A DNA stretch of 64,000 nucleotides from Blasia pusilla (lineage: Eukaryota). The first letter of the stretch is position 1. The number at the start of each line of letters is the position of its first letter. Location of the stretch: contig CM114271.1 of NCBI GenBank assembly GCA_050084515.1, positions 40,300,001 through 40,364,000 on the forward strand, read 5' to 3'. The notes below the pieces were generated by a model that was given only the letters and a program-made list of their open reading frames with translations, searched no databases and was not told the DNA's origin. Shown piece after piece: positions 1-63,000 of the stretch. The translations under genes and the position numbers were made by a program.

Positions 1-760
1 CATGAAGGCTACACTCTCCTCCGCCATGTTGCGCTCAATGTTCTCGGCGGTCCTAAAAACATCTCTCAATGTAGGGAAGGTGTTCATAAGAAGCACCCCC
101 TCCCGCACGCGTGTCCGCAAGGTCCGGTCTAGCATCGCGTACTATGACTGGATAGCGTGAGCCCCCGTCATCCCCTGAGTGACATTGATAAACCGGCGCA
201 AGCGAGTGTAAGCCTCACGCAAACTCTCACCTGGGCGCCTCTGGAAGTCGTGGATGCTTCGCAACTTCTCCATCCGTACCCCTTGGTAGCTCGCCCTCAA
301 CTCAGCAAAGAACTCAACCACAGGGTTGAACCTGGGACGAACCCGACTAGATGATGCAACTGCTCTAGTGCGAGTGACCCCTCCTAAAAAATCACTAGTG
401 GAAGAGGAAGAAGCCTCTCCTGACTCCTCCTCCTAATCTGGGAATGGCTCCGTCCATGACACATAGAGTGGGTCATATTTGAGTCGCCATGCCTCAATCT
501 CTTGGGCATATCTATGGGAGAACTCATGGTAATCGTCCATAGGCGCCCCCTCTAAATGTTGGAACATACCGTTCCATGCTGTAAATGGGTTGAACTTTCT
601 AGAGTTCTTAGCCCGCTGGGAGTCGCACCAACTCCTAAAATTTGCTATGAAATCGTGCAACTCAATCGTGCCTACTCCACCTCAAAACCTACGCGATCCT
701 CTACCCCGATCGTCCATCTCGTACACCCAATTGGTAGGACCACTCACAATGTATGGTGAT
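1..760 (-). pseudogene. gag: retrotransposon Gag (capsid), degenerate
   Basis: Peptides LHDFIANFRSWCDSQ...GMFQHLEGAPMDDY and DEKLRSIHDFQRRPGESLREAYTRLRRF...LRDVFRTAENIE resemble the retrotransposon gag major-homology region. Stops and frameshifts are present. Confidence 0.7.
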
Positions 761-3004
761 GTGCTCACAAACTCCTCTACACCCTCCCCCTCGTCTGACG
801 ATGACACAGAAGGAGGTCGAGGTGGTCCCTCACGTGGAGACCCTCGGAACCTCGTGGCACTCTCGGGTTCACCACCTCGCCTCTCAAAGTCCCAAACGGA
901 CGTCATGATGACCCTCGTGCTCCTCTCACCCGATCACTCTCAACCTCGCAAGTATCCCTCAATCACTCATTCCAAACATGCGGCACTCGATCTACACTCT
1001 CCCTCCGCGAGACGTGTAACGTGCGGCAACACGCGGCGTGGTGCGGCAAATCGACCAGGCTATCATCTCATCGACAAACTACCCTCAACTCCGGACATCC
1101 CACACAAGTCTATGTCCCCTAAACCACATATATGAATGATGCTCTCACCATCCACACAACCAAATATCCCCAAATAAACTACCCAAATCCCAAAATCCCT
1201 CACATGTGCAAGGTAAAGGACCAGAATGGGTAATTTGAACACATGTCGATGTCGCTCCTCAGCAAGTGCAAATCTTGACCCCAACTTGGTCGTGAAGACA
1301 ACTCCTCCAATCAGCAAGTTGTACTCCTCTCGTACTGACATTGCTCAACCTCCTTGATGTGCGGTGGAGGTTGAGCGGTCCGGTGCGACACTGGCGGAAC
1401 ATAACGGCTACAAACATCATGGCACTCGGGAAGAATGGGATGCGGCACTCGGCGGCATACCCTCCTCAATCAACAATTCACACGCTCTGCTCCTTAGTGA
1501 AGGAGCGGTTCCGCGATCGAGACGGTACGGTGCGGCCACAAGCAGCATGGCGCAGCAATCGGTGGTGTATTGCGGCTACGGGCATCATGACACGGTACTC
1601 GATCGTCGTCGAGCGGCTACCAATCACAACATAGCAACATGAAATCAAAACTCAAACACCATAACCGGAGGTCATCTGCCATCACTGGTTGATGACGAAA
1701 CTACGATGATAATGGCGGCCAAAACAAAATACATGGTGGTGACGCAAGTCAGAGAATCAACGAACGTCGTGAAAGACCTTCCACTCCGTGATGGCGGCAA
1801 TGGCAACCAAAGGGTGGAGAACGGACGGTGGACCGTTAATGGTGATGGCTGACCATTGATGGTGATGGCCAACCAATGATAGTGGCGGTGATGGTTGACC
1901 GTTGATGGTGACTATGACGGCGACGGCCGCGGCCAACGTGGCGGCTCGTTTAGGGTTTGAAGAATTTAACCCTAAAAAATTTCCTACCAATGGTAGTTTT
2001 GCAAGATTGAATGTGACTTTTTGTTCGCAACTCCAAATTACACATTGTTTGTTGCACAGCGTGCATAACTTCATGATCTACGACAACGTCAAAAAATATT
2101 TAGAATCGGACATTCCAATAAAAATTGACGGGGACTGTTGTAAAGCCCAATGTCTCTTTCTCCTACACAAAATTCAAAAGCGCTTCCGCGCTGATTTCTC
2201 CCAACGAAACTGTAAAACCTGTAAAAATACAAATCAGCAAGCTACATGGTGCTCTCAAGAGCGCCGGCATGGGGCAATCCGCCCCCATAAGTAATCCCTA
2301 TCAGAAATTGGGCAGCGCTTCCGTGCGCCATTCTTCCACACAAAAAATAGGCAAATGCAAAGAACAATCAAAGCAGCCCTTGCTCCGGTGAGCACTCCCA
2401 TGACCCGCTGAACAGGGAACACGGTCCCCAACCTATAAAAATAGTGAGTGACCAGCGAGCTCCCCCATGAAGCTCTCTCATTCTCTGTTTGTAAAGTAAG
2501 ATCCAATCTCTCTCTACACCATCTCACACCATAGCTCTCAAAGGTGTGCGCTTTCTCTCATGTCAAACCAAACCCACTCTCCTAATGAGAGGCTTGGGTT
2601 ACACTCATAAGGCAAGGGACCATAGCTCCCCCGCCTTATGCCAAGAGGTTCAACAAAGAGAGAATGAGCTCACAAACTCTCTCTCTTGGAGGTATATCCC
2701 CTTCCCTCTCCCAAGCCCTCTCAACAGTAACCTATGCTTGCAGGTCACCTCCTTGGCTCTTGACCTGCTGTAGCGGGTCAAGGGCCACTTCCCAAACTAG
2801 AAAGTCAAATATCCCCAATATGGAAACTTACCCAAAATAGTAAGTTTCTATATATGACTCCAAATGAGCCGAAACGAAGGGGAAATCTGCTCTCTCAAGT
2901 TTCTCGGGGCCTCAACAGATCATCCTCGACCTCCTGGGCCTGTCCTCCACTACTCGTGCAGACGCTTTGCTAGATCCCATCGATCTATCCTAACAGTCGT
3001 GACA
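1..3004 (-). mobile_element. Ty3/gypsy LTR retrotransposon, 5' part (continues beyond window start)
   Basis: The minus strand begins TGTCACGACTGTTAGGATAGAT at 3004, and gag-like peptides lie at 1-760. The terminal ~70 bp (2934-3004) closely match the terminus of the element ending at 52184. The LTR/PBS boundary was not resolved. Confidence 0.75.
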
Positions 3005-3810
3005 GATCTCTGATATTGAAAAATTACTACTTGAATTCAACCCAACCTTTACATGGAAGGATGCACCCGTTGAGTGTGCCCAATTCTTTCACCCACGCCT
3101 CCACACATTTTTGGCTCAATTCATTTTTTGTGGGCCATGTGTTCTTGGTAAAATAGTAGAGTGCATCATCAGATATGAGATATAAGGCAAGGGTAGCTTA
3201 CATTGTCATATAATATTTTGGGTTGAGAGTAAAGATATTGAACGAGTTACTTCAAAAATATGTGCTTATATTCCACATTCACCACATCCTCCTACATCTG
3301 ATTCACTTCCACTCAATTATTCTACATGTTCTTCCTGTTTGCGAGCATATGTTATGAATAAGCAACTTCACAAATGTAAGGATGGTGTTTGCATAATACG
3401 CAAAAAAAAGGACCAGCGACCTTTCTGTCGTATGGGCTTTCCAGCTGATGTTAACACTTCACAAATTCCTTTCATTCACCCTAAGACTATGCGTTGGGCA
3501 TACTATAGGCCTACTACTCAACATAGGAATGTCATTCCATACCATCTAGTTATCTTACTTCTCTAGGATGCCCATATGAACATCCAGCGTGTCACCAATA
3601 TGGACTGGTCTTTCTACTTACTAAAGTATGCCCTAAAGTCTGAGCCAACATGATCTCTTGATATATGTAATGAATCTGATCGTTACCTTGGCCTAGAAGG
3701 ACTAGATGAAGTACGTCTCAGACTTATATCTGGGGTAGTACTCAATAGATCTGTATCATCCACTGAAGCTGCTCTCACAGCATTACAAATCCCAATTATT
3801 TTCCGTTCTC
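3005..3810 (+). pseudogene. Helitron2/Helentron-type HUH Rep domain remnant
   Basis: Peptides DAPVECAQFFHPRLHTF...LGKIVECIIRYEI*GKGSLHCHIIFW (HUH at ~3201-3209), HKCKDGVC...CRMGFP and NVIPYHLVILLL*DAHMNIQRV...YLLKYALKSEP (YxxKY). There are in-frame stops and no helicase follows. Confidence 0.7.
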
Positions 3811-6560
3811 AATGTGTCAAGAAACTACTCTCACACGCTCTCAAGAAAACCGTCTTTTCTCACTTGCATCGGGAGGAATCAGGCTAGACCAGTTAAGGCC
3901 ACTCCGCCATGAATTCCGTCTATCATTTCACATGCTAATTGAACTCAGTTCAGTCAAAGCCTCCCAGCTACTAGCACGCATGAAATTGGCGCAGAGTAAT
4001 GGTGATCTGCCAGAACTCCCAATCATACCTCTGGATTCCAGCAAGTCTAGTACAATTCCCATCCTTCCAGAATTTGAATTGCCTTCAGCACAGAACCCTA
4101 AGACCACTCCATACATTAACAACAATATGGTGAACTCCCCAAGTAAGCGCAAATGCACTTGATTTTATCAGGTATGCTACTTCTCTCTTACAATTTTTTC
4201 ACTCCTTTCCATGCAAGTCCCTTATGACATCTCCATTTCCTATCTCTCTTCTTTTCGTCCATGATCTACTTTCCACTTACCTCTCCACTATTTTTTCCTT
4301 CTGTGTAGGTTCATGGATCATCTCTTCTCACTTCACTATGCTTCACTTCAAATTTACAAATTAAACTCTTACTCTTTCAAATTTTACCTCTCAATCTGAA
4401 CTGATTATATTCCCCCAATTTCCATTTCTAATTTCAACTTCAATTTCACTTTTTCCCTTGCTTTTGGCTACTTCATCTACATTCTGATTCTCTTCTCTTC
4501 ATAGCATTGTCACCGTTTCACAAGATGCTTCTTTTTTCATTGTCTCCATGTGGTTTGCATTATTAGCCGATCTTTCTTTCTATGCCCTCTATTTCATTAT
4601 ACTTTACTTCTCCTTTTGTGTTCTTTCCCCACACTTCACTATGCGTATCTGAAAAATAATAGAACATCAACTTTCACTTTCGCACATTGCACAAGCACAA
4701 GTACCATCTTTTCTACATGATGTTTGCCTTTCATTACACATATACAACTTCATTTCTACTAGATTTGCCTTCTCATTCTTTCTGACACTACTTCTTTCCT
4801 ACACTTGCTCTAAATTTTCTCCTTTCAATGGCAAATATGTTTGCAGATTCGCTACAGGAACCCATCCAGGAGAGCTCAGCATGCTACATCATCTTCTGGA
4901 CTTTCTACTTCCAACTATGTTCCAATACAGGTCCATGAGCAACTTTAGTCGAACCTGTATGAAGCTGAGTCTGAAGTTGGCAGATTGGAGAATGAGTTAA
5001 ATTTGCGTGGCGATCTTCTGTCATCTCTCTATAAAGAGATTGACCATCAAAAGGAGACTCCACAGTACTACACTGAGAAGTTGAAAGATTCCAGAAAATA
5101 CCTCAAAGACTTCTTGGCTGATATTCGCCCAATGATTGTTGAAAACCCAAGGCTTTCATTACAGGCCAACATAATTCAGTCATTACTACGTCAATAGAAT
5201 ATTCTAAATTCTTCTACCTATTAGCTTCTATTTTGTAATGCTACTACTATAGTATTCTACAAGGAGGAAAATTCTGCTCTACAAAATTTTTCGAGGGATA
5301 CTACTATACCACTGATTTTTCCATGATGATTGGGTTCCACTCTTAACTACAACATAAATTCAATTTTCCCACTGCGCACTTTCAATTTTATCTACTCTTT
5401 TCTAAATTTTGTATGTCTTATTAATTTCCTATCATGTACTTTGCTCCCTTTGCATTTTCTACCACAACATTTCACATGTTTCCATTGCAAATCTCCTTTT
5501 TCTTGTCTACTTTGCTTATGCTATATGTTCTTTTCAATTTCAGAACTTTTACTTTGTTCATGTCTACTTTGCATGTCTTTTGTTCCCTTTCTCTGTTATT
5601 CCGAATAAATCCTCTTTTACTCTGTTTCAAAATACTTCTTCCTCTTTTACTGGCACTATAAATATTCTTCAAGTTCATAATTTCCTCTTTCCTGTTCACT
5701 AAATTTCTTCTTTCCTGCTCTTTGCTTTTACTTTCCACGAATCCATAATTGCTGCATATCATATCCATGCACACATCTCTAATTCTTTTTTTCTTCTTTT
5801 CCTACACTGTATTCTTTTCTATTACTCTTTTACTTTTACTTTCGTGCTATGTACATCCATTTTTTGCTATTGCTTTACTGCTGTTTTTCAACTCCTACAG
5901 TTGGATTTCTCGACTTTTATTACTTCCACTTTCCTATTACATACACTCATTTCAATCTATTCCTCTACTACTGCATTTCAGATGATTCCATGACATCTCT
6001 TTTTCTTTTTGTACCTCCTTTACCTACACTAAATCTTCTTACCATGTTCATGGATTTGGTTCCCTTTTGCTCTCTGCATTCACATTAAATACAGTAGACA
6101 TGTTTATGCAAAGAGTAAGAGAACTAATGAAAGGAATTCTAATCTCCTATGCTTACAGTAGTTTCAGTACCATCTCCATCCATATTCTCATGCATTTCTG
6201 CATTTTACTCATGCCCTATTAACCATATTCATTTCACAATCCACTTTCCGTCTCTTGCCTCACATGAATCCAATCATTTCAACTCATATGAACAGTACCA
6301 TTTTATTTTTTACATCATTCATTAATACTATCTTCCATCTTTGGCCCTTCCAAAACAACCATCAATGGTCAATACCCACACTCTATCAATTTTTTCACAT
6401 CGAAGTATCTTCCATCTTTCCTCCTCTCATTTATTTCCTCCACCTTCCCATATCTCTAACTAGTAAGGTGCCCGTGTGATGCACATGTGCAAGAGGGAAT
6501 ACAAAAGATGCAAATAGGCATGAAGGAAAAAAATTCTGATCTGATTTTTAAATATTTATT

Positions 6561-14370: not shown

Positions 14371-15682
14371 TCTTTCTAGTTTTGACTCGGGTACCTTTCG
14401 GCGAACGCTCAAGAATATCTTCGAATGTAGCTAACCTGCCGCAGCTCCTGGAGATCTGATTGCAAGCTATCCACGCTCATCCCCTTTCCAGTCCTGCTCT
14501 TCGGTGTTCTTGATTGACTTCTTTCCCTAACTCTCCGGCTCTCAGGTTATCTTGCTAGGCTCTCTTGCTACTTGTTCGACTCTCGGTATTTTTGACCGTC
14601 GGGCTCTCTTGCTAGTTGTTTGACTCGGGTGCTTTTGACAGGCGGGCTCTCACAACCTTGCAGATCGGGTCTCGAGGATTTCTTCGCGGTCTGGCTCTCA
14701 CAACATTGCACATCGGGTCTCGGGGATTTAGTTTGGCTACTGTGCTTTTGATGGTCGGGCTCGTTTGATAGTACACTCTTTCGGCATAGCGCAGCCCGTT
14801 CGGTAGGGTGCTAGGGATCGGTAGCCCGTTGGGCTACCGATCTCTAGCACTTCGGCTACAGTGTCTCTTTTGACAGCCAGGCTATTGGTCTCCGAAGCTA
14901 TTTCTCTCCTATTACACATGTACACCTGGGACAGGTAGGGGCAAAATGGGTGGAGTTAGTACTCAAGTTGAATACTGAAAGAGGGGTTGGCAGAGACATT
15001 CAAAAAAAATTTATGTCGCTTTCATTTCAAAGTAAGCAGTACATGACAATTTGATTTACTCTACTCCTGATCGGCATGCTCACCCTCTCCTAGATCCCAA
15101 ATTCAGATATGGATCTGAATATTCACTACAACTTCTTTCCCCTTCTGCCCTAAACGTGGGGATTTCTTTCTGCACTGTGGAGTTACCGCGGAACATCCCT
15201 TGGATGGTGAGCTTTGCTGATTTCGGTTAGTGTGCGGGGTCATTCTCCGCTTCTTAGCAGAGGCTCCCTCCTCGGTATGTTCCCTTTCTATGCCGGGCCT
15301 CCTTATGTGATAGGGAGGAGTCCCTTCCTCCTCTACAACATCTATTCCCTCTCCTCCAACTGGCTTCGGATCGTACCCTTTGTTGGAATCCATAGGGAGG
15401 ACTGCAGCGGGCATGGAGTCCTTTATTGCATACTCAAATCCCGGAGCATGCACGGGGGTTATCGGCTCTCCCCAAGTGGGACCATCACAGTGCAACTTGT
15501 TCCATTTGCTCAAGCGCATACAGTCCCCATGACTTATTGGAGACCATTTTGTACTCTCCAATGCTTCTAGATCTGGTGACTTTACACCGTAATGTTTTTT
15601 TGAGCTCGTTACCTTGGACAAACTCTTTCCTCTTCCTTGTGTTGACTTTTTTTCTGTGATTCTTGTTGCCATCTCTAGGTAG

Positions 15683-46312: not shown

Positions 46313-48542
46313 CGCGTCCCCGAGCACTGCGCTGCCTTTCCTCCCTCGTTCCTCCCTCCCTCGTTCCCTGGCAATCGAGACGCAATCGATCGCTCCGCTG
46401 CGCGCACTCTCCTTGTGCCTCCGCTCTCCACCGCAAAGACGCACCTTTGAATCGTCGCCTCTCTCTCTCTCTCTCTCACTCACTCACTCAGGAGGTCGCT
46501 CTCGCCGACTCCTGCGTCCCGCTGTCTGTGTGCGCCTTCCTGAGGCGCCGCTAACTCGGACTCGTGCCCGACGGAGCCCTTTACGGCCCCTTTAGCCTTT
46601 CGGGGACGGGCTCCTGTACATCCGTCCGGAGACGTCTAGTGACGATGGAGTGGGGCGCTTGCGACGCCGGCTATCGTCGCGGGACGGTCGTGAGAACGTG
46701 ACAAACTCGCGGAAGTCGTTTTACGGCTGTGAAGTAGGACAGCGATGGTCATGAGCGAGGAATCATTTCGGATGACTCACCTCCGGGTTATTCATCCGTG
46801 TAGACTACTCTATTCAAATCTAAGTCCAAATTAGAGGTTTCCTTTTTTTTCTTCCCCACAAAATTAGTGCTCTCTCACTGGTTTTGATTTTTGATTATTT
46901 TTTTAAATAACATTTTTTGAAAATTTATTTTATCATAATGATAAATCTTAAAAGAGGAGAAAGAAAGGTAATAACATTTCAAAAGAATAAGAGTCAATGG
47001 AATGCAAAAAGAAAATGGCAAATAGTTAACACCAACTCAGCCAGACACGCAATTAATAATCTATGCAAATTTGGCAAGAACACTAGTGGTTGATCAGACG
47101 TGAGTGGACGACGAGGAGAGCGACCCCCCACCACTTTTGCTTGACGTATCAACGATAAAGTTTGTGCACGTTGTAAGGCCTCTAACATGCATTGCCAAAA
47201 ATAAGTAGTGACTACACAAAGAGAAGGATTACAAGAAGGGGCAAGGTGATGATTCTCGAAGGAGTGTTTGAGCACATGTTTTCAGGATAGGATGAAAAGG
47301 CACATGTAAATGATCATATACTTCCAATGCAAAAGGAATAAATCCATCAAATGCATGTCTTATAGCATAACTTAACTCCTTGATGATTTTTTTTGCTTCG
47401 GATGCCGAACCTTTAGTACGTGACGCTCGATACACCAAGTCAGAACCTCTTGGATGAGCAACCACCACATCACATTACGTTCGAAATCCACCACGTATGA
47501 GCCACTAATGCTACCACCTTTCTAATCACATCACATGTGGCCGTTCGTTCTCCACCATGTGCATATCAAAGAAATATGGATATCTTTTTTTCAATAGGTT
47601 CCCCACGTACAAAACTCAACATCCCTAGCAGAGAAGGATGGAAAGTCCAAAGCATAACCGCAAAGTTGTCAAGAATATACCTCAAGGAAGCCGAAATAGA
47701 AGAATAAAAGGATTTGCAGTGAGCCATGCCCCCACTCTTATATCCGCACTTGAACAAGCATGAGTTTGATGAGTGTTAGAAGATACCTCAAAGAGAATGC
47801 TAGACAAGCTGATTTGATGCAAATTCTTGGAAATACGCTTTTGAAGTCGATCAAGCCCTTCCGTGATCAATTGACTAATAGGGGAAAGAATTACGTATGT
47901 AGTGAGAGGGAGAAGAGATCAAGCAGATCTAAATTGCTCTATCTGGGCGACATGATCCATCAAGAGAGGTCTATCTTCAGAGAAAAACCTTGAAGTCATA
48001 ATTTGTGCTACCAACGCCTAACTCTCAAAAAAAAATGCAGGAGGAAATGCAAATGTGGAGGAAAATTCCACCTCTCCAAAAAGAAATAGGCAAGATAGCT
48101 TTTCATGAAGCCAAGACACCATTATCTCCGAAAATGTATTCAAGCCAAGAATTTGACCAAAGGTTGCCACAATAGAAGCATCAAAAGAGGCCAACTGATG
48201 TAAGAGTGTTGAGTTAGGAGGACAAGTGTGTCGTGCGCATACACATCGCTACACAACATACATCGCTGTCACCAAACACACACACAAACACGTACGATCC
48301 CATGCTAACTCATGGCATCCAAACAACGAGACAAGAAGTACCAAAATATCTCCCATCGCCCCCCTAACTGGTGGTTAGGTCCCTCTAACTCCAGATAGCC
48401 ATCTATCCCTACCTACCATGACATACATCTCTCGGACGCTAAGAGCAAGAAGGCCGGGTGCTCATGTGGCCCCATCATTAGTCGCCTTCCTGTCATCCAT
48501 GTCAGAGAAAAAGTAGGGATCGAAACCTACCTAGTATCTCCC

Positions 48543-51500
48543 CTATGTACATCTGGGACACATCCATCGTCCCCGAGGAACCCTAGTGAGAGGTGGCGTC
48601 AGACATGCCATATTCCAACCTCTCGACCAACCATCACAGACTAGCATCGTGACCGCACCACGGGCAGAACCACACAACATACAACACAAGCGTGCAAGAA
48701 CTACTGCTAAGCCCGGATCCACTGTACCATCAATGTTAGGAAGGTGACATGGTGCACAATTACGCACATGTTCCTTCCATACCATACCATCGCGTCCTCC
48801 ACCAAGAGAACACCGGATGGCAAAACGTCACGCACTCTCAAGATAGTGCGCCATGCAGTCACATCCAACGTCGTAAGTGTCGTCTGCTGCAAGTAGACGT
48901 AATCTCCCTGATGAAACCTCCGGATAGTTGGTCCATAACCACCACCTCTAATAGTCGCATACCTCAACGTATCCCGATGCTACGCAATCGCCAAGTTCTC
49001 GAACGCCATGGGCATCACTCTCCGAAACAACTCAGCCCTCTGAGAACATGCTCGCATCCATACATTTGGGTCATCAAGTTCTAGCACCTCACCAGCATCT
49101 CGACGAATTTCCGAAGGTAAATCTAGCTCTCGGCCATAAAGTAGCAAGTACGGTGAAAAAGACGCTAAGGATGTCTGCCAGCTGAATCTGTATCCCATCG
49201 CCAACCACAGCAACTAGAGGTCCCAATCTCCTAGGTGACCTCTTTGCAAGCCATACTTGCGTAAACCCCTCTTCACCATATGCACAACTCTCTCCGCTAA
49301 TCCATCCGCCTCGGGATGATCTCGCAAAGTCGTACGATGGTTGATGAGCGCCTGATCACACAAGGCCTGGAACTCACCGCAAAACTCGGTACCCTGGTCT
49401 GTCAACACCTCAGCCGATGCGCCATAATGACTCACCACTCTGTCAACGAAGGCATAAGCTACTCCCTCACTCGCTTTGTCAGGCAATGCAACCAACTCGA
49501 TCCACTTCGAGAAGTGCTCGACCATCACTAACACATAACGACTGTGACGCTCCGTCAAAGGCAAAGGTCCGAAAAAATCCAAATTCCATCTATACCCTAA
49601 GCCCATGATTGGTAATGGATGCAACTGTGGAGTCGGAGCATTGAACGATGTTCGAACCCGATCACACACCATGCACTTGGCAACAAACTGCTGAACGTCA
49701 GTCTGCATGCCTCGCCACCAATACTGAATCTAGAGCAAGGTGTACGTCCGCTTCACCCCAAAGTGACCCAACTCCTCGTGGGCATGCTACACTAGTCGTG
49801 CTCTCAGCGAAGGATGTAGCACTACGCGTACTCTGCCATCCTCCCAAACCCTCAAAACATGTGTCCCCTCCCAACGGAACCGTCTGGCCCGCTGTAGGAT
49901 CCGATCTCGCTCTCTAGCACCCACAGTGCTCGCAATGCTGCCAGTACGAAGGTACTCCAAGACTACTCCATCATCATGAATATCTCGGCCATCTGTCGTC
50001 TCCTCACCGGCCTCGGGATCCAAGGACTCTCCACTAGACCTCGCCATCGAAGTCTCCACACTTTGGCTCTCCATAGCCAACATGCCTAAATAGGTTGACG
50101 CATGCCATCCTGGCACTGACTCCTCATCACTCTCTCCATGCCATCGAGCTCCAGTCGCATCTCGCTGACTCGGGCATGGGTTACAACTCAACCCATCTAC
50201 ATCCTGGTTGAGCGTCCCAGGTCTATGTACCACTTGAAAATCATATTCCTGCAACAACAGAGCCCATCTCGCAAGCTTCCTCGTAAGCTTGTCGGACTCC
50301 ATCAAGCACTTCTATGGTTGATGATCAATGATGATGGTCAAGGGGTTTCCAAATAAGTAACACCTGAAATACGCGACAGCCCACACCGCAGCCAAGCACT
50401 CACCCTCATACGAGGTGTACTTTGCCTTTGCAGCATTGTTCGAGCGGCTAGCATAAGCCACCACGAACTCTCTACCCTCATCATCATGTTGGGTGAGCAC
50501 CCCTCCAAGCCCCAACATGCTCCAATCTGTGTGCAATTGGAAAGGACGCCCCCGGATCGGTCTCCTCAAGATGGGCGCAGATCTCAACATGTCCTTGAGC
50601 AACTGAAATGCTCGCTCTTGCTCATCCCCCCAATGCCACTCATGATCCACCTTTGTCAACAAGGTCAGGGGCTTCGCAATCGAACTAAATCCCTTGACGT
50701 ACCGCCGATAGAAGTTAGCCAATCCCATGAATGCGCGAACACGGCTCACATCCATAGGACGTGGAATGCGTGAGATAGCCTCTACCTTTGTATGCTGAAC
50801 ACCAAGGCCCCCTGGGTATATCGTATGACCCAAGTACTCAATCTAGTCGTAGAAGAACTTGCACTTTCTTGGATGTAGCTTCACCCCATGTAATTGCAAT
50901 CGTCGAAACACCTCCTCTAGATGTCGCTCATGCTCCTCAACCGTGGCGCTAAAGACTATGATGTCATCAATATAACACCTAGCAAAATCCAGACCAGCCA
51001 AGATCCTATCCATGACCCTTTGAAACTCAGCCGGGGCGTTCTTTAACCCAAATGGTAAGAACCGCCACTAGTACAAACAATCCTTCCCGTGAGGATTGAT
51101 GCCCCAAAATGTCGTCTTCTGTCTGTCCTCCAATCTGATAGGCAGTTGATGGTATCCGGCTCGCAAATCCTATCAACTGAAGACCTTTGCCTAACCAATC
51201 CCATCAAAGATCTCCTCAGGGGTGGGCATGGCATACCTATCAAACTTCGTTTGTCGATTGATAGGTCGGTAATCCACACACATCCGCCTATCTGTCCAGT
51301 TGCTATGCACATCCTTATTGGCGGGCATGACAGTGGCAGATGCATACTCCCCATGGGACATCTCCACTAGTCCTGCTCTGACCAAGTCCTGGCTCCTACT
51401 CTGAATTAGAGCCCTCTCAATATCATTGTACCTGTAGGGTCGTCGGAAGAGCGACGTATCACTCGAAAACTCAATGCGGATCCCCAGTCCCTTCAACGTA

Positions 51501-52115
51501 CCCAAATCCTCCATGCTAAATGCAAAGCAGCTCCTATAACTTGTGAGGAACTGATGTATCCGGCGCCACTCTCCTCCTGTCAACTTAGAGCCCATATCTG
51601 GCTCCCAAGTCTCCATCGTTACTATGGTAGGAGTCTCTGGCATGGGTATCGGTGGTTGCTATGGTGCAACCCTGTCTCGAACAACAACGCTCGGCTGCTC
51701 TTCTGCAGCCAACTGCAAACTCTCATCTCCTCCACATGCAGTGCTTGGAACCATGCTCGATGTTGTGGCTATCATCTCTTCGCGTACTTGCAAAACATCC
51801 CAAGAAGTCCAAGGATGTCTCTCCCGATCTCCCTTGGTGTGTTGATCTCCTCGGGTCTCGCCCCCACCCACTGCCTCCACCATCGCGGTAGGCATGGGGC
51901 TCACCAACGCAACCGTTGTGATCTGTCGTAATCTCATCGGACGCTGCTCAGCCACTCCCAAGCTGAAGATCCATGTCCAGCAATTCAGGTCCATCGCTTG
52001 ACCCAAGACATGCCGTCGTGATGCCTCTGATACTGACGGTACTGCCGTCACTCCTGTGGAAAATCCCATCGCCCGCTCTCTCTCGTCGGCGTTGGGCTCC
52101 ACCAACTGCTGAACC
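48543..52115 (-). pseudogene. pol: pol polyprotein: C5-MTase C-terminus, RT, RNase H, integrase, PHD finger
   Basis: RT RRMCVDYRPIN...YIDDII, RNase H LHTDWSMLGLGGVL...YEGECLA, INT WNLDFFGP...LTDQGTEF...ADGLAER, and PHD CMLC...MLVCDGWSRGWNMACLTPPLTRVPRGRWMCPRC. Stops and frameshifts are present. Confidence 0.9.
51950..52115 (-). pseudogene. cytosine-5 DNA methyltransferase motifs IX-X remnant (DNMT3/DRM-like)
   Basis: QQLVEPNADERERAMGFSTGVTAVPSVSEASRRHVLGQAMDLNCWTWIF fits the E-x-ER-xx-GF-x4-T-x5-S-x3-R-x3-LG pattern of C5-MTase motifs IX-X. It is in the same frame as the downstream pol ORF 51191-51643, with one intervening stop. Confidence 0.75.
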
Positions 52116-55100
52116 TGGCCTGTCCTCCACTACTCTTGAAGACGCTCTACTAGATCTCACCAATCTATCCTAAATGACGTGACAAGTGCGAAGAAGACAA
52201 GAATGACGTTGTATAAAACATTGGGAGAGAATCCCATAAGCCACTTGGGGTTCCCTTAGGTTAGGTAACAAATGAAGCTATTCTACATCTCTCAAAAGGG
52301 CCTCATCCAAGAACTTGAAGACATAGTTGATGAAGCCAATCGAAATCCCAAGAACTCGAACTCCCTCGATGCAAATAAAAAATAGGCGGGGAGAAAATTG
52401 AGGGAAGGTATAAAGGATATCATAACTGACATTTACTAGAATGGAATTTATTTTTTAAGAAAGAGAGTTAAACCATAAAATGGGTATACGTAGGGACCAC
52501 TTTTGAAGGAGGGCCTATAATGTAGGTATCATCAACAATGGAAGGGAAGAAACAAGATGGAAATGCTTGGGCTGGTACTCAAAGGGCATAAAAATATGAA
52601 ATGGTAAAGAGTGGTCCACCCATGGGATTACCTTGACGCGTGCCGCAAGCTTATTCGGTAATACTATATTCCTCGGAAGTAGCATGTTGAGAATAGATAA
52701 TGGTTGTATCGTAGGCATAGAAGGAGGGGGGAAATGGAATAACACTCACAAGTTGTCTTCCTACGCAATGTAATTCCTCAAATATGGCTGCCGTAACGTT
52801 AACCACATTGACTTTAATTGCTACCCATTTTGGATGAATATCAAGAGTGGAGCCAATCCCATGAACAATAGCCTCACAACCACATGGGGTTGTCACTCCA
52901 AATTGATGAGGAAATAAGTGGGCATTGAAGTGAGGATGAAATTGTAAATAGAGGGATCGACTAACCAAGTAGTTTAAAACCTCTTTGATAGCCAAAGGGT
53001 GGACACTATAAGGAGGCTTATCCATAGCCAATAAATGAGTAGCCCCTAAGTGCCTGGAGATAGAGAATGGGAGACGACTTGTTATAATATGTGCACACAC
53101 CTTATATAGAGAGATAAAGCCACCTTCTGAATCTCTCTAGATAAAGTAATTACAAAGATGCTAAAAAACCATGCTTGATACCCCGCCTACTAATAAGCAA
53201 GAAGTATGAAGAAAATCCCTAGTGAAAACCTCCAAGTCAAGATCCATAGTCTTCCACAAAAGATGGTGCATCATCATTTGAAGAGCTTTTAAGAGTTGAA
53301 GAGGTTTTAAGAGTGCCACTATGTCCATACTTGGAACCATTGGAGAGAGAGGATTCAATACTCAAGTTACACATGAAAACTAACCAACTTGCCCAAAAAG
53401 TATACTTTAATCAAAGGTGTTGTATTGAAGGCCTCCTATGACTAGCATGTTTAGTGTATTGAGCCATAACTAAGGCCTCTACTCCAAGTAAATACTCATT
53501 TTGAAGATTCTCCCAATCTCCAAACATAAAGCGTTGAATATACATGGAGGTTTCACAATCATCTTGAGATGACGACTCATCGCACCACCCCTTAAAGGGA
53601 GGACTAAAACCCATTATGGGAAGTGTAGTAGGAGATACCAAACATTGATATTTTTGGGATCAAGCGCTAACCTTTATAATGGGAAAAACAATGCTTGTTA
53701 GGTTATGGAGCGAAGAGCAATAGGAATGCGAGTGTAGAGTCTGGGACAAGGGAGACATGGATGGAAAGAGTGAAGGAGTTCAATTTGGCTTAACCAAGTC
53801 CAAGAAGTTGTTTTGGGGAGTGTAGTAGGAGGTGATATCAGGTTAAGGTTTAAAGGCCCATGCATGGATCAATAGTACCGTTGATGTCTTTTGATCCCAT
53901 TAGGAGAAAACTCCTTACCACAAGGTTAGGTGTGCTACAAACCTTTGGCACAAATGTAGAGGTAGAACCATTACAAGGAGAGGAGGTGGCAGGTGCATGA
54001 GGTGATAATGCACGAGGATGAGGGGGTAAGAAGGTTGGGGAACGAGGAGGAGGAACATGGGAGATAAGGGTAGAAAATATGGGAGTTGGAAGCAATGACA
54101 CAAATGAGATATGTGAGGATGCTAAAGTAGTAGGATTCGATAATAATGGATTGAGATTAGACTCAATAGGAAGAGACAGAGAGGGGAGAAGAGGAAAATA
54201 TGGAAAAAAATGTAGCGAGTATAATGCGTGTATAAGTATTTGGAGGAAAATGACCAGATCTACGATAAGGAGGGGAATTAGGGGGAGAAGTTATGTCATA
54301 GGAGGGCGTTTAAAACCACAAAAGCGAGTAGATGGATTATCCAACTCCATCTCTAATTCCATAAAAGTAAAGCATCCATTTTTATTCTCAATTTTAATTT
54401 TAAAGCTTTTTTATGATGATTTTGAAATACTTTTTTGATTCTCTTATGTAGCTTTTTATGTTGTTTTTGCACTAATCTTGAAATCCTTTGTGATTCTTTC
54501 AAAACAGTTAGAAAACTTTTGCACAATTGCATTTGTGAAGACTTTTACATAAGTAGAAAAGATATATTAAAGCTTCTAGAGGGGCTTTGTAATTCTCATT
54601 TTAGTAGGTCATAGTGACCTACTACCTTGGGGATGACCCATGTATATAGGTCTCCATTGCCGTTATCGGCACTTTTCGAGGAGGTTGCCACTTATTATGT
54701 GTCTTATGACACATTAGTAGGGTTTTGTTTTTTATTATGACGATTGGACCTAAGCGCAAAGTGGGATATGTTATGTGGGGAGGGTATCCTCTTTTGAGAG
54801 GCCTTGCTCTCCTATAATGACTATTACAACATAGTTTGGCTAGTAGACAAAGTTCTATCGTGTTGATTGTGTACGGAGTGACTAATTTATTTGAGCATAA
54901 CTTCATCGTAGAGTCTGACCTCTACTTCTCTTAGCTAGAAGACTTAGATTGAGTTCCAAAGACTCAATCGATTGCACATTTTGTGGGTAGTAGAGAAACT
55001 GCCAAGTGCTAATCGGGTTGAGTTTCCCGCAGTGTGTACCATCTCCCATGTACTTGTGTTTCATATCTCTTATGGATACCGCTTGTCTTGATTCCCCATT

Positions 55101-60022: not shown

Positions 60023-63000
60023 ATGGTGGAACTCAAGTCGAATGGAGCAAAAATGAACTCACTTTCCACAACGGATGAGTTTAAAAAGAAGGCGATCTTC
60101 TTAATTGGACTCAAGCCTAGCGCCAAAAAGGCCCTCTTTTGTATGCCTCACCTACTAGAGATGTGCGCGGAGCTTTTGAGGCTAGCAGAGCGGATAGGGG
60201 ATGATGAAGTCCAAAGCAAAAAACCCTTTGAGCCGAAAACTTTTCTAACTTACCAAAAAACAAAGGGGCATCCAAGAGGGTTTGGAATGGGGGTGAGCAT
60301 GACCACAGATGGGTCTCTTGCCCCACCAGCAAAACGGGTGGAACTCAACGCGAAGCCAAGAGGGCCGATGTACCCAAAGTCAGCAAACGCAAAAGTGATT
60401 TGCTACACTTGTGGCAATCTGGGGCATATGGCTGGGGAATGTGTGAGGCCCAAGGTTAGTAAACCAAGTATGATTACATTTTTTGCTAAGCACTTATCGG
60501 CGGGAGATCTAGATACATCTCTCCAAGTCACCAAGAGAACCCCCAATTTGGTTTACCTAGGATCCAAGATTTTTGATCGCAATGTAATGTTGCTCGTCGA
60601 TACAGGTGCTTCACACTCCTTCTTGAGCCCGAGAATTATGAAGGCATCAGGATTTCCAACCACTAAGGCGGAAGAACCCATTAGGGTAGGTTTTGCGGGA
60701 GGCAAGTCTCACCAGACCTTTAGAGTTGGTTTTAGGACTAGCTGTGGGATGTGGAGTATTCGAGTTGAAGGAGAATTTCACAATTTGGGATATGGATAGA
60801 ATCAATGAAGTCTTGGGGAACACGTTCTTGGATGCGTATGAGGTGAAATTGAGGCGAAGACCTTTGAGGTTGAGCGTCTTGGTAAACAACAAACGGATGT
60901 ACTTCAAATTGGTTCGTGAGGTTCCTAGAAAGACGGAGTTTGTGAACGCCATCACGAGGATGAGTTTGAGCGAGTTAGAGGAAGGATTCCTTTGCTTGAT
61001 GAGACAAGTAGAGGATGATGCAAGAGCGAGATGCAGAGATCAGAACTCAGCTTCAAGGGAAATCCCTGAAACACTGAAGAGAGTTGTAAAAGAATTTGGA
61101 GATGTTTTGACTAAGGAGCTTCCGACTGAGTTGCCACCACATAGGGCGGTTGATCATAAGATAGAGGTGATACTCGGATCTCAAACACCTTCAAAGGCGC
61201 CATATAAGTTGAATCAAGAAGAACTTGCTAAGTTGAAGAAACAGTTGGGTGAACTCCTAGAGAGGAATTACACCTGAACTAGCAAGTCACCTTATGGAGG
61301 GCCCGTTCTCTTAGTGAAGAAGAAGGATGGAAAGTTGAGACTCGGTGTTAATTATCGGGCACTGAATAAAGTGACGATAAGGAACAACTATCCTCTTCTG
61401 AGGATGGATGGATGACCTCTTTGATCAATTTTCAGGTGCCAAGTATTTCAGCCGGATTGACCTGAAATCAAGATATTATCAGATTCGGATTGTCGAAGCG
61501 GATGTAGAGAAGACTGAGTGTAGGACAAGATACGGTTCGTTTGAGTTTGTGGTAATGCCTTTTGGTTTATGTAATGCGCCTCCCACGTTCACCACTTTGA
61601 TGAAATCCATCTTTCATAAGGAGATGGATAAGTATGGGATCATCTACATAGATGACATACTCATCTATTTGAAAACACAAGAGGAGCATTTGAAGACGGT
61701 GTTTGAGAAACTCAAGGAAAACAGGTTGTATGCGAATGCGGACAAGAGTGAGTTCACTTTGACAAAGATCAAGTTCTTGGTGCATGTGGTTACTGTAGAT
61801 GGAGTGAGTCCAGACATGGAGAAGTTAAGCGCAATTTCCGAATGGGAACCGCCTTCCACTGTGAAGGGGATGAGGAGGTTCATCGGAGCGGTCCAATTTT
61901 ACCGGATATACGTGAAGAACTTTTCAGGAATGGTGAAACCTCTCACAGATTGGACCGCCAAGTTTTCCAACATAACATGGACCAAGGAAGTGGATAAGGC
62001 ATTCAACCGAGTCAAGGAGCTCACAGGAACCAGTTTTAAAGTTGCCGGAGTTCGTCCAACCGTTCGAGGTGCACATTGATCGATGCTAGTAATTCCGCGA
62101 TTGCAGGAATGTTGGTGCAAAAAGGGAGACCTGTAGCATACAAGACCAAGAAGCTTAGCTACACCAAAAGGAGATGGCCCACTCATGAGAAAGAGTTGTT
62201 TGTGGTGGTTCATTGTTTGAGGAAGTGGCGTCACTATTTGTAATTGGGACTTCACAAGACTCGAGTATTCACCGATAACATTTCGCTCAAGTATTTTGAG
62301 ACCCAAGATCGCTTAGCACTGAAGCAACTTTGATGGCATGATACCTTGGCACTGAGGATTGTGGAGCTAATCCACAAGCCGAGGAAATACAATGTCATTC
62401 AAGATGCATTAAGTCCCAGGGATGAGCATATGCCATCGACGACACTAGTCTTGAGAGCAATGTTCCCTAAAGAAACAGACCTTGAAAGAAGGATCTGTGA
62501 AAAATACATGAAGGATGCGCAAGCGAGTGAGTACCTGAGGAAGTTGAAGCGGGGCGAGAAGGTGGCTAATCTAAGTTTGAGGCATGGTGTGCTAAGGTTT
62601 AAGTAGAGCAGGATCTCTGTAGGCCAAGGCAAGCTACAAACCAAAGTGTTTGCAGAATGTCATGACGGACCTTTGGCAAGACACAAAGGGGAGAAATCTA
62701 CTCTTGTTGTTTTGGCCAAGAGGTTCTTCTAGCCCAAAATGAAGGAAGATGTTGCTCAATATGTGAAGACCTACGTGACCTGTCAGGCGAATAAAGTTTC
62801 TTATGCGAAGAAGCAAGGCTTACTTTGTCCTTTGCCGATCCCGGAGGGACCCTTACAAAGCATTAGCATGGATTTCATTACGAGTCCTCAAGAATCTGAG
62901 GGATACAATGCTATACTTTTGATAGTTGATCGGTTTAGCAAGTTAGGGAGGTTTGTGCCGACGAGAGATTCTGCGACGGCCTATACAACTTCCCGACTAT

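Follow-up and report, generated by a model that had tools for sequence, protein, structure and literature searches.

A dead Ty3/gypsy copy in Blasia pusilla from a bryophyte family that very probably bears a DNMT3-type methyltransferase and a PHD finger

We analyzed a 64,000-nucleotide stretch of the Blasia pusilla genome (assembly GCA_050084515.1, contig CM114271.1, positions 40,300,001 to 40,364,000 of the forward strand; hereafter the window), whose minus strand carries a retrotransposon copy between positions 52184 and 48229. A first reading, made from the sequence alone, had described this copy as a Ty3/gypsy element with a cytosine methyltransferase remnant and a PHD finger. The results presented here make it very probable that it is a dead copy of a bryophyte Ty3/gypsy family with an element-borne DNMT3-type enzyme and a PHD finger. 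In the window itself lies only a fragment of such an element, non-functional and with internal deletions; as it retains only the last ~60 residues of the methyltransferase (motifs IX–X), no methyltransferase is made from it. The kind of element is already known from an alga (KnitGypsy-Dnmt3), and the land-plant branch with its distinctive layout is apparently undescribed in those parts of the literature that were available to us.

Cytosine methylation is the main weapon of plants against transposons, so a transposon that encodes a methylation writer is a paradox. Element-borne DNMTs have so far been documented only in dinoflagellates and one charophyte alga. Elements in liverworts and mosses bring the question into genetically testable organisms, with at least 14 gene models in Marchantia, and offer a testable architecture: a DNMT at the abundant Gag-protease end, a stop before the reverse transcriptase (RT), and a PHD finger on the integrase.

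Identity of the peptide upstream of the reverse transcriptase

Upstream of the RT, the window copy has a 156-residue frame (52129-51659, beginning WRTGQVQQLVEPNADERERAMGFSTGVTAVPSVSEASRRHVLGQAMDLNC), in which the sequence-only reading had recognized the spacing of motifs IX and X of C5 cytosine methyltransferases. A search with this peptide against 2595 candidates recovered 38 proteins at E ≤ 0.01 (best 3.8e-35) that were 55–84% identical to it over the matched part. The named sources of the 38 were Calypogeia fissa, Marchantia polymorpha, Riccia sorocarpa, Sphagnum jensenii, and S. fallax. In the relatives that were fetched, the counterpart of the peptide is the C-terminal end of a complete methyltransferase domain with motif I DLFGGISTG, motif IV GWPCQG, motif VI ILENVP, motif VIII SRAHRPRLWWTN, motif IX ADERERAMGF, and motif X LGQAMD. 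A lack of motifs I, IV, and VI upstream of the peptide in full-length relatives had been named beforehand as a refuting result, and relatives with these motifs exist: using simple patterns, we found motifs I, IV, VI, IX, and X in unpermuted order in 11 of the 38 proteins. In nine of these 11 the spacing is identical, with 87 residues between I and IV, 44 between IV and VI, 137–138 between VI and IX, and 27 between IX and X. Twenty of the 38 relatives carry PF00145; Pfam matches of relatives to it, at 3.1e-12 to 1.3e-08, lie above the 22-bit cut-off.

An alignment of 16 relatives with the window peptide showed invariant columns at E, ADERE, MGF, T, and LG. The catalytic motifs (FxGxG, PCQ, ENV, RxR, and the GQ or GN of motif X) were retained in 13 of the 16 relatives printed, in both of the domain orders described below; the exceptions were P0078 (motif IV GPPCVG), P0058 (GWECQG, with the proline lost), and P0089 (GGMCAG).

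A profile of the family matched DNMT3A at 5.5e-19, DNMT3B and DNMT3C at about 1e-16, plant DRM proteins at 6.5e-10 to 1.7e-07, and M.HhaI at 1e-05. Its segment EREramGF...rralLGq was aligned on EMERVFGFPVHYTDV...ARQRLLGR of DNMT3A (chain residues 238-266 of 287), the same segment that the sequence-only reading had cited for its assignment of motifs IX–X. The methyltransferase fold was assessed on one relative, P0018, whose AlphaFold2 (AF2) model had a predicted local distance difference test score (pLDDT) of 68.7 and a predicted template modelling score (pTM) of 0.76. Foldseek matched this model to the methyltransferase domains of DNMT3A and DNMT3B (3e-16, target TM 0.75, ~335 aligned columns). 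The mammalian enzymes DNMT3A, 3B, and 3C (PDB codes 8te4, 2qrv, 6u8p, and 8tci, among others) are the best profile and fold matches and share the motif order of the family, whose motifs IX–X align to EMERVFGF...QRLLGR of DNMT3A. They differ from it in that identity is only ~20–24%, whereas the family lacks PWWP and ADD domains, has GQAMD in motif X, and carries a longer, poorly modelled insert before motif IX. Plant DRM (PDB codes 4onj and 7l4c) is likewise DNMT3-related, but it is circularly permuted, whereas the family domain is not, and only motifs I–VI align.

Several observations weigh against this assignment. The window peptide alone (EPNADERERAMGF...LGQAMD) matched no Pfam family at E ≤ 1 or E ≤ 10, either as the 156-residue frame or as a 60-residue peptide, and phmmer with the 60-residue peptide found no methyltransferase in the PDB (best match adrenodoxin reductase, E = 0.048). 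The C5 methyltransferase profile match that the sequence-only reading had looked to for the peptide itself was thus not obtained, which we ascribe to the remnant being too short to score alone. The alignment of motifs IX–X to DNMT3A is weak by itself, as a collinear second stretch with an independent E-value of ~1. In the relatives, PF00145 spans just the motif IV–VI part and never the C-terminus. Finally, the AF2 model is moderately confident, with residues 263–303 before motif IX below a pLDDT of 50.

On sequence grounds, the homologues settle the matter: the window peptide is the remnant of the C-terminus of a DNMT3-type C5 methyltransferase. A chance resemblance of an ordinary linker upstream of RT to motifs IX–X would account for the absence of Pfam matches at E ≤ 10 and the chance-level phmmer result, but it is already refuted by the 55–84% identity to the matching stretch in 38 proteins, its fixed distance after motifs I, IV, and VI in 11 relatives, the alignment, and the agreement of both profile and fold with DNMT3A/3B, and we give it practically no credence.

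Layout of the window copy and its family

The features of the window copy, together with a second family copy in the window, are as follows (window positions).

52184-48229, minus strand: the element copy, a dead, internally deleted Ty3/gypsy fragment
52185-52188, minus strand: CACT outside the 5' end; the same four bases lie outside the 3' end at 48225-48228
52117-52184, minus strand: stub of the 5' end of a long terminal repeat (LTR), 68 bp, starting TGTCAC; 58 of 68 positions identical to window 2937-3004
51941-52116, minus strand: C-terminal remnant of the predicted DNMT3-type C5 methyltransferase (motif IX ADERERAMGF, motif X LGQAMD, and the next helix), from the alignment with 16 relatives
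51662-51940, minus strand: variable linker, corresponding to the end of the first open reading frame (ORF1) in intact relatives; alignable and weakly conserved across relatives
51653-51661, minus strand: family-conserved in-frame TAG followed by CAA CCA, from the locus alignment
50843-51658, minus strand: RT, with four in-frame stops within it and one at its end (RVT_1, tblastn)
50312-50842, minus strand: RNase H (Pfam RT_RNaseH_2 and RT_RNaseH)
48828-50311, minus strand: linker, integrase zinc-binding part, core, and C-terminal part, with five in-frame stops (Pfam Integrase_H2C2 and rve)
48549-48683, minus strand: PHD finger, the C-terminus of the polyprotein (PF00628), with a stop at 48545-48543
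48229-48542, minus strand: 3' untranslated internal region, 314 bp, from an end-to-end alignment with 14455-14741 of metagenome locus L004
10-3004, minus strand: second family copy, start only; LTR beginning at 3004, Gag at ~717 and continuing past the window's edge

A single frame from 52129 to 48980 spans the element and contains 11 in-frame stops (10 TAG and one TGA). One frameshift lies upstream of the PHD finger, within the overlap of two frames at 48707-48827. Pfam matched the window copy to RVT_1 (4e-19, on 51067-50843), RT_RNaseH_2 (4.4e-31), RT_RNaseH (2e-23), Integrase_H2C2 (2.8e-06), and rve (1.1e-13), and its RT is 60.6% identical to that of the Marchantia protein P0035 over 586 columns (tblastn). 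The order RT, RNase H, integrase is that of Ty3/gypsy elements. The PHD finger matched PF00628 at 4.3e-07 (30.3 bits; cut-off 24) and is the last domain before the stop at 48545-48543, consistent with the earlier description of a polyprotein that ends in a PHD finger after integrase. In an alignment with the PHD fingers of eight loci and five proteins, six of its eight zinc ligands were retained, and the fourth cysteine and the histidine were substituted. The 5' part of the coding region is lost. As the sequence-only reading had stated, methyltransferase motifs I–VIII are missing: tblastn with full-length relatives found nothing upstream of 52114-52129 in the window copy. Motifs I, IV, and VI, all present in relatives, are deleted from it, as are Gag and the aspartic protease, both of which relatives have.

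The layout of the family was examined in proteins and in 30 metagenome loci, which came from a contig pattern scan and were queried with segments of the window copy's own pol. P0035 joins a protease motif (VLLDSGAQP), DNMT, RT, and RNase H in one protein, and the metagenome protein P0058 has zf-CCHC, Asp_protease_2, DNA_methylase, RVT_1, RNase H, Integrase_H2C2, and rve in one frame of 2318 residues; in P0037, an Asp_protease_2 match lay below the cut-off. The end of the DNMT is followed by RT, as in the window, in 22 of the 30 loci. Seven loci were too short or had no RT match, and one (L025) showed the other order, RT-RNase H-DNMT-integrase-PHD. A PHD finger follows integrase in all seven same-order loci that reach far enough (L004, L009, L013, L015, L017, L018, and L024), which makes it a feature of the family. 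Pfam found PHD in each of the four loci tested (L009, L013, L018, and L025; 8.4e-11 to 3.8e-14), and the full Cys4-His-Cys3 set is present in L013, L024, L025, P0057, P0064, and P0080. In L004, direct repeats at 5997-6303 and 14744-15050 are 94% identical and 8747 bp apart, with 307 bp visible before the contig end cuts them, which shows that the family has ordinary LTRs about 8.7 kb apart. No direct repeats were found in L018 and L013, and only small ones in L017. A shared insertion of ~840 bp, seen as a tblastn gap, lies within RNase H in L015 (3245-4081), L016 (3252-4091), and L017 (3294-4130); these loci are probably copies of one already-broken element, or the insertion is a nested one.

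A profile search of long proteins gave 63 matches, among them at least 14 Marchantia models. A distant group at 35–42% identity includes Chromochloris zofingiensis and Haematococcus lacustris and has the order RT-RNase H-DNMT-integrase-PHD; in the Chromochloris protein P0080, a G-patch match (5.1e-05) lies between DNMT and integrase. These chlorophyte-type elements (P0057, P0064, P0080, and L025 at 1-4495) share the DNMT clade, the motifs, and homologous RT, integrase, and PHD domains with the bryophyte family, but they differ in that their DNMT lies between RNase H and integrase and everything is in one frame. Against 1.84 billion cluster representatives, the profile matched 8417 proteins at E ≤ 0.001, 1902 at 1e-10, and 426 at 1e-30, many of which sit inside polyproteins of 1000-3456 residues.

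Annotation or assembly chimeras, in which a host DNMT3 gene has been joined to a neighbouring gypsy element, could be suspected, as several Marchantia gene models are partial or end right after the DNMT and P0006 and P0008 have no PF00145 match; this explanation is already refuted by the recurrence of one order and spacing across 22 independent metagenome loci, the position of the DNMT between the two LTRs of L004, and the uninterrupted 2318-residue frame of P0058 that joins CCHC, protease, DNMT, RT, RNase H, and integrase. The DNMT domain is also intronless in these loci (ungapped matches of 1101–1104 nucleotides), and the 426 clusters at E ≤ 1e-30, many within polyproteins of 1000-3456 residues, leave it a negligible chance.

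The sequence-only reading had placed the methyltransferase at the start of pol and counted one stop between it and RT. The peptide is indeed in frame with the RT-proximal frame apart from this stop, since the frame 52129-51659 ends at TAG 51661-51659 and the frame 51658-51191 continues past it. The stop is nevertheless a conserved feature of the family and not a lesion. Likewise, the proposal that the family encodes a methyltransferase and a PHD finger held, with a DNMT domain that has its motifs, but this domain ends the Gag-protease frame and does not begin pol. In an alignment of 20 loci, 15 have a stop at the column of window TAG 51661 (11 TAG and four TAA), and 19 have one within five codons of it; L027 has none in the 21 codons printed. 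CAA CCN follows the stop directly in 17 loci and in the window, whereas L020 reads TAG CAG TTA. Gene models and proteins from metagenomes that have the Gag-protease-DNMT order end 119–177 residues after motif IX, and the Marchantia models P0005, P0009, and P0040 all end 126 residues after it. The other ten stop positions of the window copy are sense codons in most relatives, with three loci having a stop at two of these positions. The aligned stops and the model ends indicate that the family is built as ORF1, a stop, and a same-frame ORF2. As predicted from these sequences, ORF1 encodes Gag (CCHC), protease, and DNMT, and ORF2 encodes RT, RNase H, integrase, and PHD, with the conserved stop between them.

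This arrangement suggests that ORF2 may be expressed by programmed readthrough of the stop codon. Murine leukaemia virus has a leaky stop between gag and pol, and leaky stops of plant viruses have the context CAR-YYA. The family resembles these viruses in having an in-frame TAG or TAA before the polymerase and after an abundant product, followed by CAA; it differs in that the stop comes after protease and DNMT, not after Gag, and in that the next codon is mostly CCC and not YYA. Points against readthrough are this context, CAA CCC in most loci; the RNA folding result, in which no conserved structure followed the stop (-6.8 kcal/mol, without covariation); an ATG two codons after the stop in 15 loci, which makes reinitiation possible; and P0058, which has no stop at the ORF1/ORF2 boundary.

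Instead, ribosomes could terminate and reinitiate at the ATG close by, or ORF2 could be translated from an RNA that is spliced or subgenomic. We consider such a route possible but rather doubtful. The ATG two codons after the stop has a CCCATGG context in 15 of the 20 loci, and a conserved downstream structure was not found, both of which fit reinitiation. However, ORF2 is always in the same frame as ORF1, a constraint needed only for readthrough, and CAA stands right after the stop in 17 of the 20 loci and in the window. Moreover, L014 and L018 have no methionine in the 10 codons printed after the stop, and that of the window is at +6.

Relation to known elements and possible function

Of the published elements, KnitGypsy-Dnmt3 of Klebsormidium nitens is the closest (de Mendoza et al. 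2018, PMC5890265; for this and the other papers cited, our statements refer to the parts of the text that were available). It has an intronless, unpermuted DNMT3-type domain in a gypsy Pol, under purifying selection, and was interpreted as an acquisition "in the K. nitens lineage" (PMC5890265). The family described here shares with it the gypsy type, the intronless and unpermuted DNMT3-type domain, the catalytic residues, and signs of purifying selection. It differs in its hosts, which are land plants (liverworts and mosses) with cousins in chlorophytes, and, as far as the published description of the algal element goes, in the ORF1-terminal DNMT, the conserved stop, and the PHD finger on the integrase. 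The repeats also differ, being ordinary LTRs in L004 and DIRS-like in the alga (PMC5890265, Fig. 4 legend). Marchantia is not named in the main text of PMC5890265, and "streptophytes (Gypsy-DNMT3)" are mentioned without detail in the available parts of PMC12344493 and 10.64898/2026.05.21.726589.

The bryophyte family may simply share one ancient streptophyte or green-lineage clade with KnitGypsy-Dnmt3, in which case only the host range would be new; this has to be weighed seriously, and we put it at somewhat less than an even chance. Both are gypsy elements with an unpermuted DNMT3-type domain, the chlorophytes Chromochloris zofingiensis and Haematococcus lacustris have relatives with the same DNMT and PHD, and the later papers speak of streptophytes as a group (PMC12344493; 10.64898/2026.05.21.726589). 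On the other side stand the DIRS-like repeats reported for Klebsormidium (PMC5890265) against the direct LTRs of L004, and the absence of any protein named Klebsormidium among the 38 and 63 matches, a weak point given that only part of the candidates was scored. A literature search found no bryophyte element-borne DNMT, ORF1-terminal DNMT, stop before RT, or combination of DNMT and PHD in the text available, and the supplementary DNMT trees of PMC5890265 and PMC12344493 may contain such sequences; a search with six Marchantia gene identifiers also found none.

Other elements share single traits with the family. SymbioDIRS-Dnmt3 and SymbioLINE-Dnmt of Symbiodinium are also retrotransposon-borne C5 methyltransferases, the former DNMT3-type and able to methylate CG de novo according to the Discussion of PMC5890265; they belong to the DIRS (tyrosine-recombinase) and LINE (long interspersed nuclear element) classes, live in another host kingdom, and have no PHD in the description available. 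EpiLTRs of Cymbomonas and Euglena are LTR elements with a cytosine methyltransferase and a chromatin reader, but their enzyme is DNMT4-related and lies at the 3' end of pol, and they have an adenine methyltransferase and a chromodomain (10.64898/2026.05.21.726589). PHD fingers are a common accessory domain of Chlamydomonas transposons (PMC8557442), and chromoviruses have a chromodomain fused to the integrase C-terminus (10.64898/2026.05.21.726589). The present family differs from such gypsy elements in having a PHD finger without a chromodomain, combined with a methyltransferase. REM1 of Chlamydomonas, too, reportedly has a chromatin-reader domain on the C-terminus of its gypsy integrase (Perez-Alegre 2005, cited in PMC8557442).

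Selection on the DNMT was evaluated on 316 codons in the 11 of 30 loci with an ungapped full match. Nei-Gojobori ratios of nonsynonymous to synonymous substitution rates (dN/dS) had a median of 0.40 (range 0.18–0.81) over the 54 pairs whose dS exceeded 0.05, and every one of these pairs stayed below 1; the ten pairs with L020 were saturated in dS. As most of the compared copies carry stops, these ratios mix selection on active lineages with neutral decay. That most metagenome copies are broken, which inflates dN/dS, and that few demonstrably intact elements were seen, count against the reading of the family given here.

A possible mechanism, which draws on ideas in the Discussion of PMC5890265, can be outlined. 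Most ribosomes would stop after the DNMT, and a minority would read through the leaky-looking stop, so that the DNMT would be about as abundant as Gag, and RT-integrase-PHD would be scarcer. Once freed by the protease, the DNMT may methylate the element's own new cDNA or its fresh insertions. Like the chromodomains of chromoviruses, the PHD finger on the integrase may direct integration to chromatin, here by tethering it to the tails of histone H3. We offer this chain of readthrough, DNMT release, methylation, and tethering tentatively, as rather less probable than its opposite. More tentative still is its full extension, namely that land plants including Marchantia polymorpha host a transcribed gypsy family whose active de novo DNMT3-type enzyme is made in Gag-like abundance as the C-terminal domain of the Gag-protease protein, is packaged, and methylates the element's own cDNA before or during its insertion by a PHD-guided integrase, and that the module, shared with chlorophyte elements that have it elsewhere in Pol, has persisted and changed place over hundreds of millions of years. 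If true, a transposon would be the writer of an epigenetic mark on itself, with a possible share in the methylome of its host.

The DNMT domain could also be real without methylating element DNA, acting on an RNA substrate, serving the particle as a structural or nucleic-acid-binding module, or acting on host chromatin so as to blunt or imitate silencing by the host. Its place at the end of the Gag-protease frame, where it would be made in structural amounts, fits such a role, and the Discussion of PMC5890265, as far as available, does not commit itself to a role and, for the enzyme borne by the LINE, entertains methylation of RNA. Retention of the catalytic motifs (FxGxG, PCQ, ENV, RxR, and motif X GQ/GN) in both architectures argues against it, as do the dN/dS values below 1 and the fact that the closest solved relatives are de novo DNA methyltransferases; we regard it as unlikely. 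Whatever the role of the enzyme, its automatic annotation as host "DNA (cytosine-5)-methyltransferase" genes (as in P0009) can distort DNMT repertoires in comparative studies.

Ends of the window copy, reads, and flanking sequence

The ends given in the sequence-only reading, 48229 and 52184, proved exact: on the minus strand, 52184 is base 1 of the LTR and 48229 is the last base of the 3' untranslated stretch. At the 5' end, 52184 is the first base of a 68-bp stretch that recurs at 3004-2937, and both matches share the outer end base. Downstream of the second occurrence lies Gag of the family (675-10, matching residues 18-241 of P0005 with 50.9% identity at 1.3e-57 in tblastn), which identifies the 68 bp as the start of an LTR. 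The LTR of L004 starts with TGTCATG and shares TGTCA with the window stub; beyond TGTCA, no likeness between the two LTR starts was found. In the window copy, the stub is joined directly to DNMT motif IX, and the remaining LTR, Gag, protease, and motifs I–VIII are lost. The second copy (10-3004) already has an in-frame stop, with ~2.3 kb of LTR and leader between the LTR start and Gag and short internal repeats within this interval, around 1800-1950.

At the 3' end, the 314-bp stretch aligned with the region of L004 between the PHD stop and the 3' LTR at a score of 198 (200 shuffles: mean 24.5, maximum 36). Local alignment found no 3' LTR after 48229, as judged by matches to the LTR stub or the second copy. 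A 3' LTR match noted by eye at 48423 was dropped, since the alignment after the PHD stop scored 23 with the stub and 39 with the second copy, against shuffle maxima of 33 and 43.

CACT stands on both sides of the copy, and with one CACT deleted the flanks form a single open frame (...HSCLLRT / CPPNSTLL...). The pair would fit a 4-bp target-site duplication, but two of its bases may instead represent the 2-nucleotide spacer that lies between the internal end and the LTR in other copies.

The insert is circularly "closed": it begins with LTR base 1 and finishes with the internal end that normally abuts that LTR base, the two being separated by a 2-nucleotide spacer in other copies. It looks as if a cDNA of the one-LTR type, or one left incomplete, had opened where the internal region meets the LTR and had then been integrated or captured during break repair, and this view would include the jump from LTR base 68 to DNMT motif IX. 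Alternatively, two separate deletions could have given the present ends.

Reads of one species label were compared with the element. In one DNA contig and in 4+4 RNA reads, 48229 is joined to 52184/5, as expected for other copies, where the internal region normally runs into the 3' LTR at this point. Reads over the stub continue at 52117 into sequence like that of the second copy, not into the DNMT. Three RNA runs gave 268, 432, and 305 reads on the element, of which only 2, 4, and 5 were at least 99% alike; almost all were 95–99% alike, which indicates that they come from other family copies. The family is therefore transcribed, for the most part at least from copies other than the one in the window. 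Most RNA pairs have the first mate on the plus strand, which corresponds to sense element RNA if the libraries are of the usual stranded kind. Read depth was highest over 48283-48604. Within this region, a core of ~37 bp with a purine-rich tract (48356-48392) has DNA word depth and RNA depth far above the rest, and many reads match the core only, with loose ends at 48356 and 48392 beyond which they diverge; the core seems to occur also in other repeats of this genome that are more abundant.

At one stop position and at the frameshift site, reads of other copies depart from the window sequence, which fits both being private lesions of the window copy. With the family stop excluded, the ten private stops (48980-52129, minus strand) comprise nine TAG and no TAA, whereas TAG makes up 35 of 108 stop triplets in the other two frames; a crude binomial test gave P = 3e-4 for at least nine of ten private stops being TAG. 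Our guess is that the excess arose by C-to-T change in CAG/CTG (CHG) context, as in deaminated methylated transposon DNA.

The flanks (47900-48224 and 52189-53136, minus strand) form a single frame once one CACT is removed, reading ...PQVAYGILSQCFIQRHSCLLRT / CPPNSTLLHQLASFD... across the insertion site. Pfam searches of six flanking frames and a homologue search with the 161-residue left flank gave no match, and an RVT_1-type lead at 53136-52651 was obtained only from Atlas (score 0.95). By their motifs, we take the flanks to resemble the region after the RT domain of plant LINE-like elements, a likeness that the Pfam and homologue searches did not confirm. Elsewhere, Rfam found no family in the whole window. 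On the plus strand, 61435-62034 holds an RT fragment of another retroelement that is 26–30% identical to the RT of P0035 and P0038.

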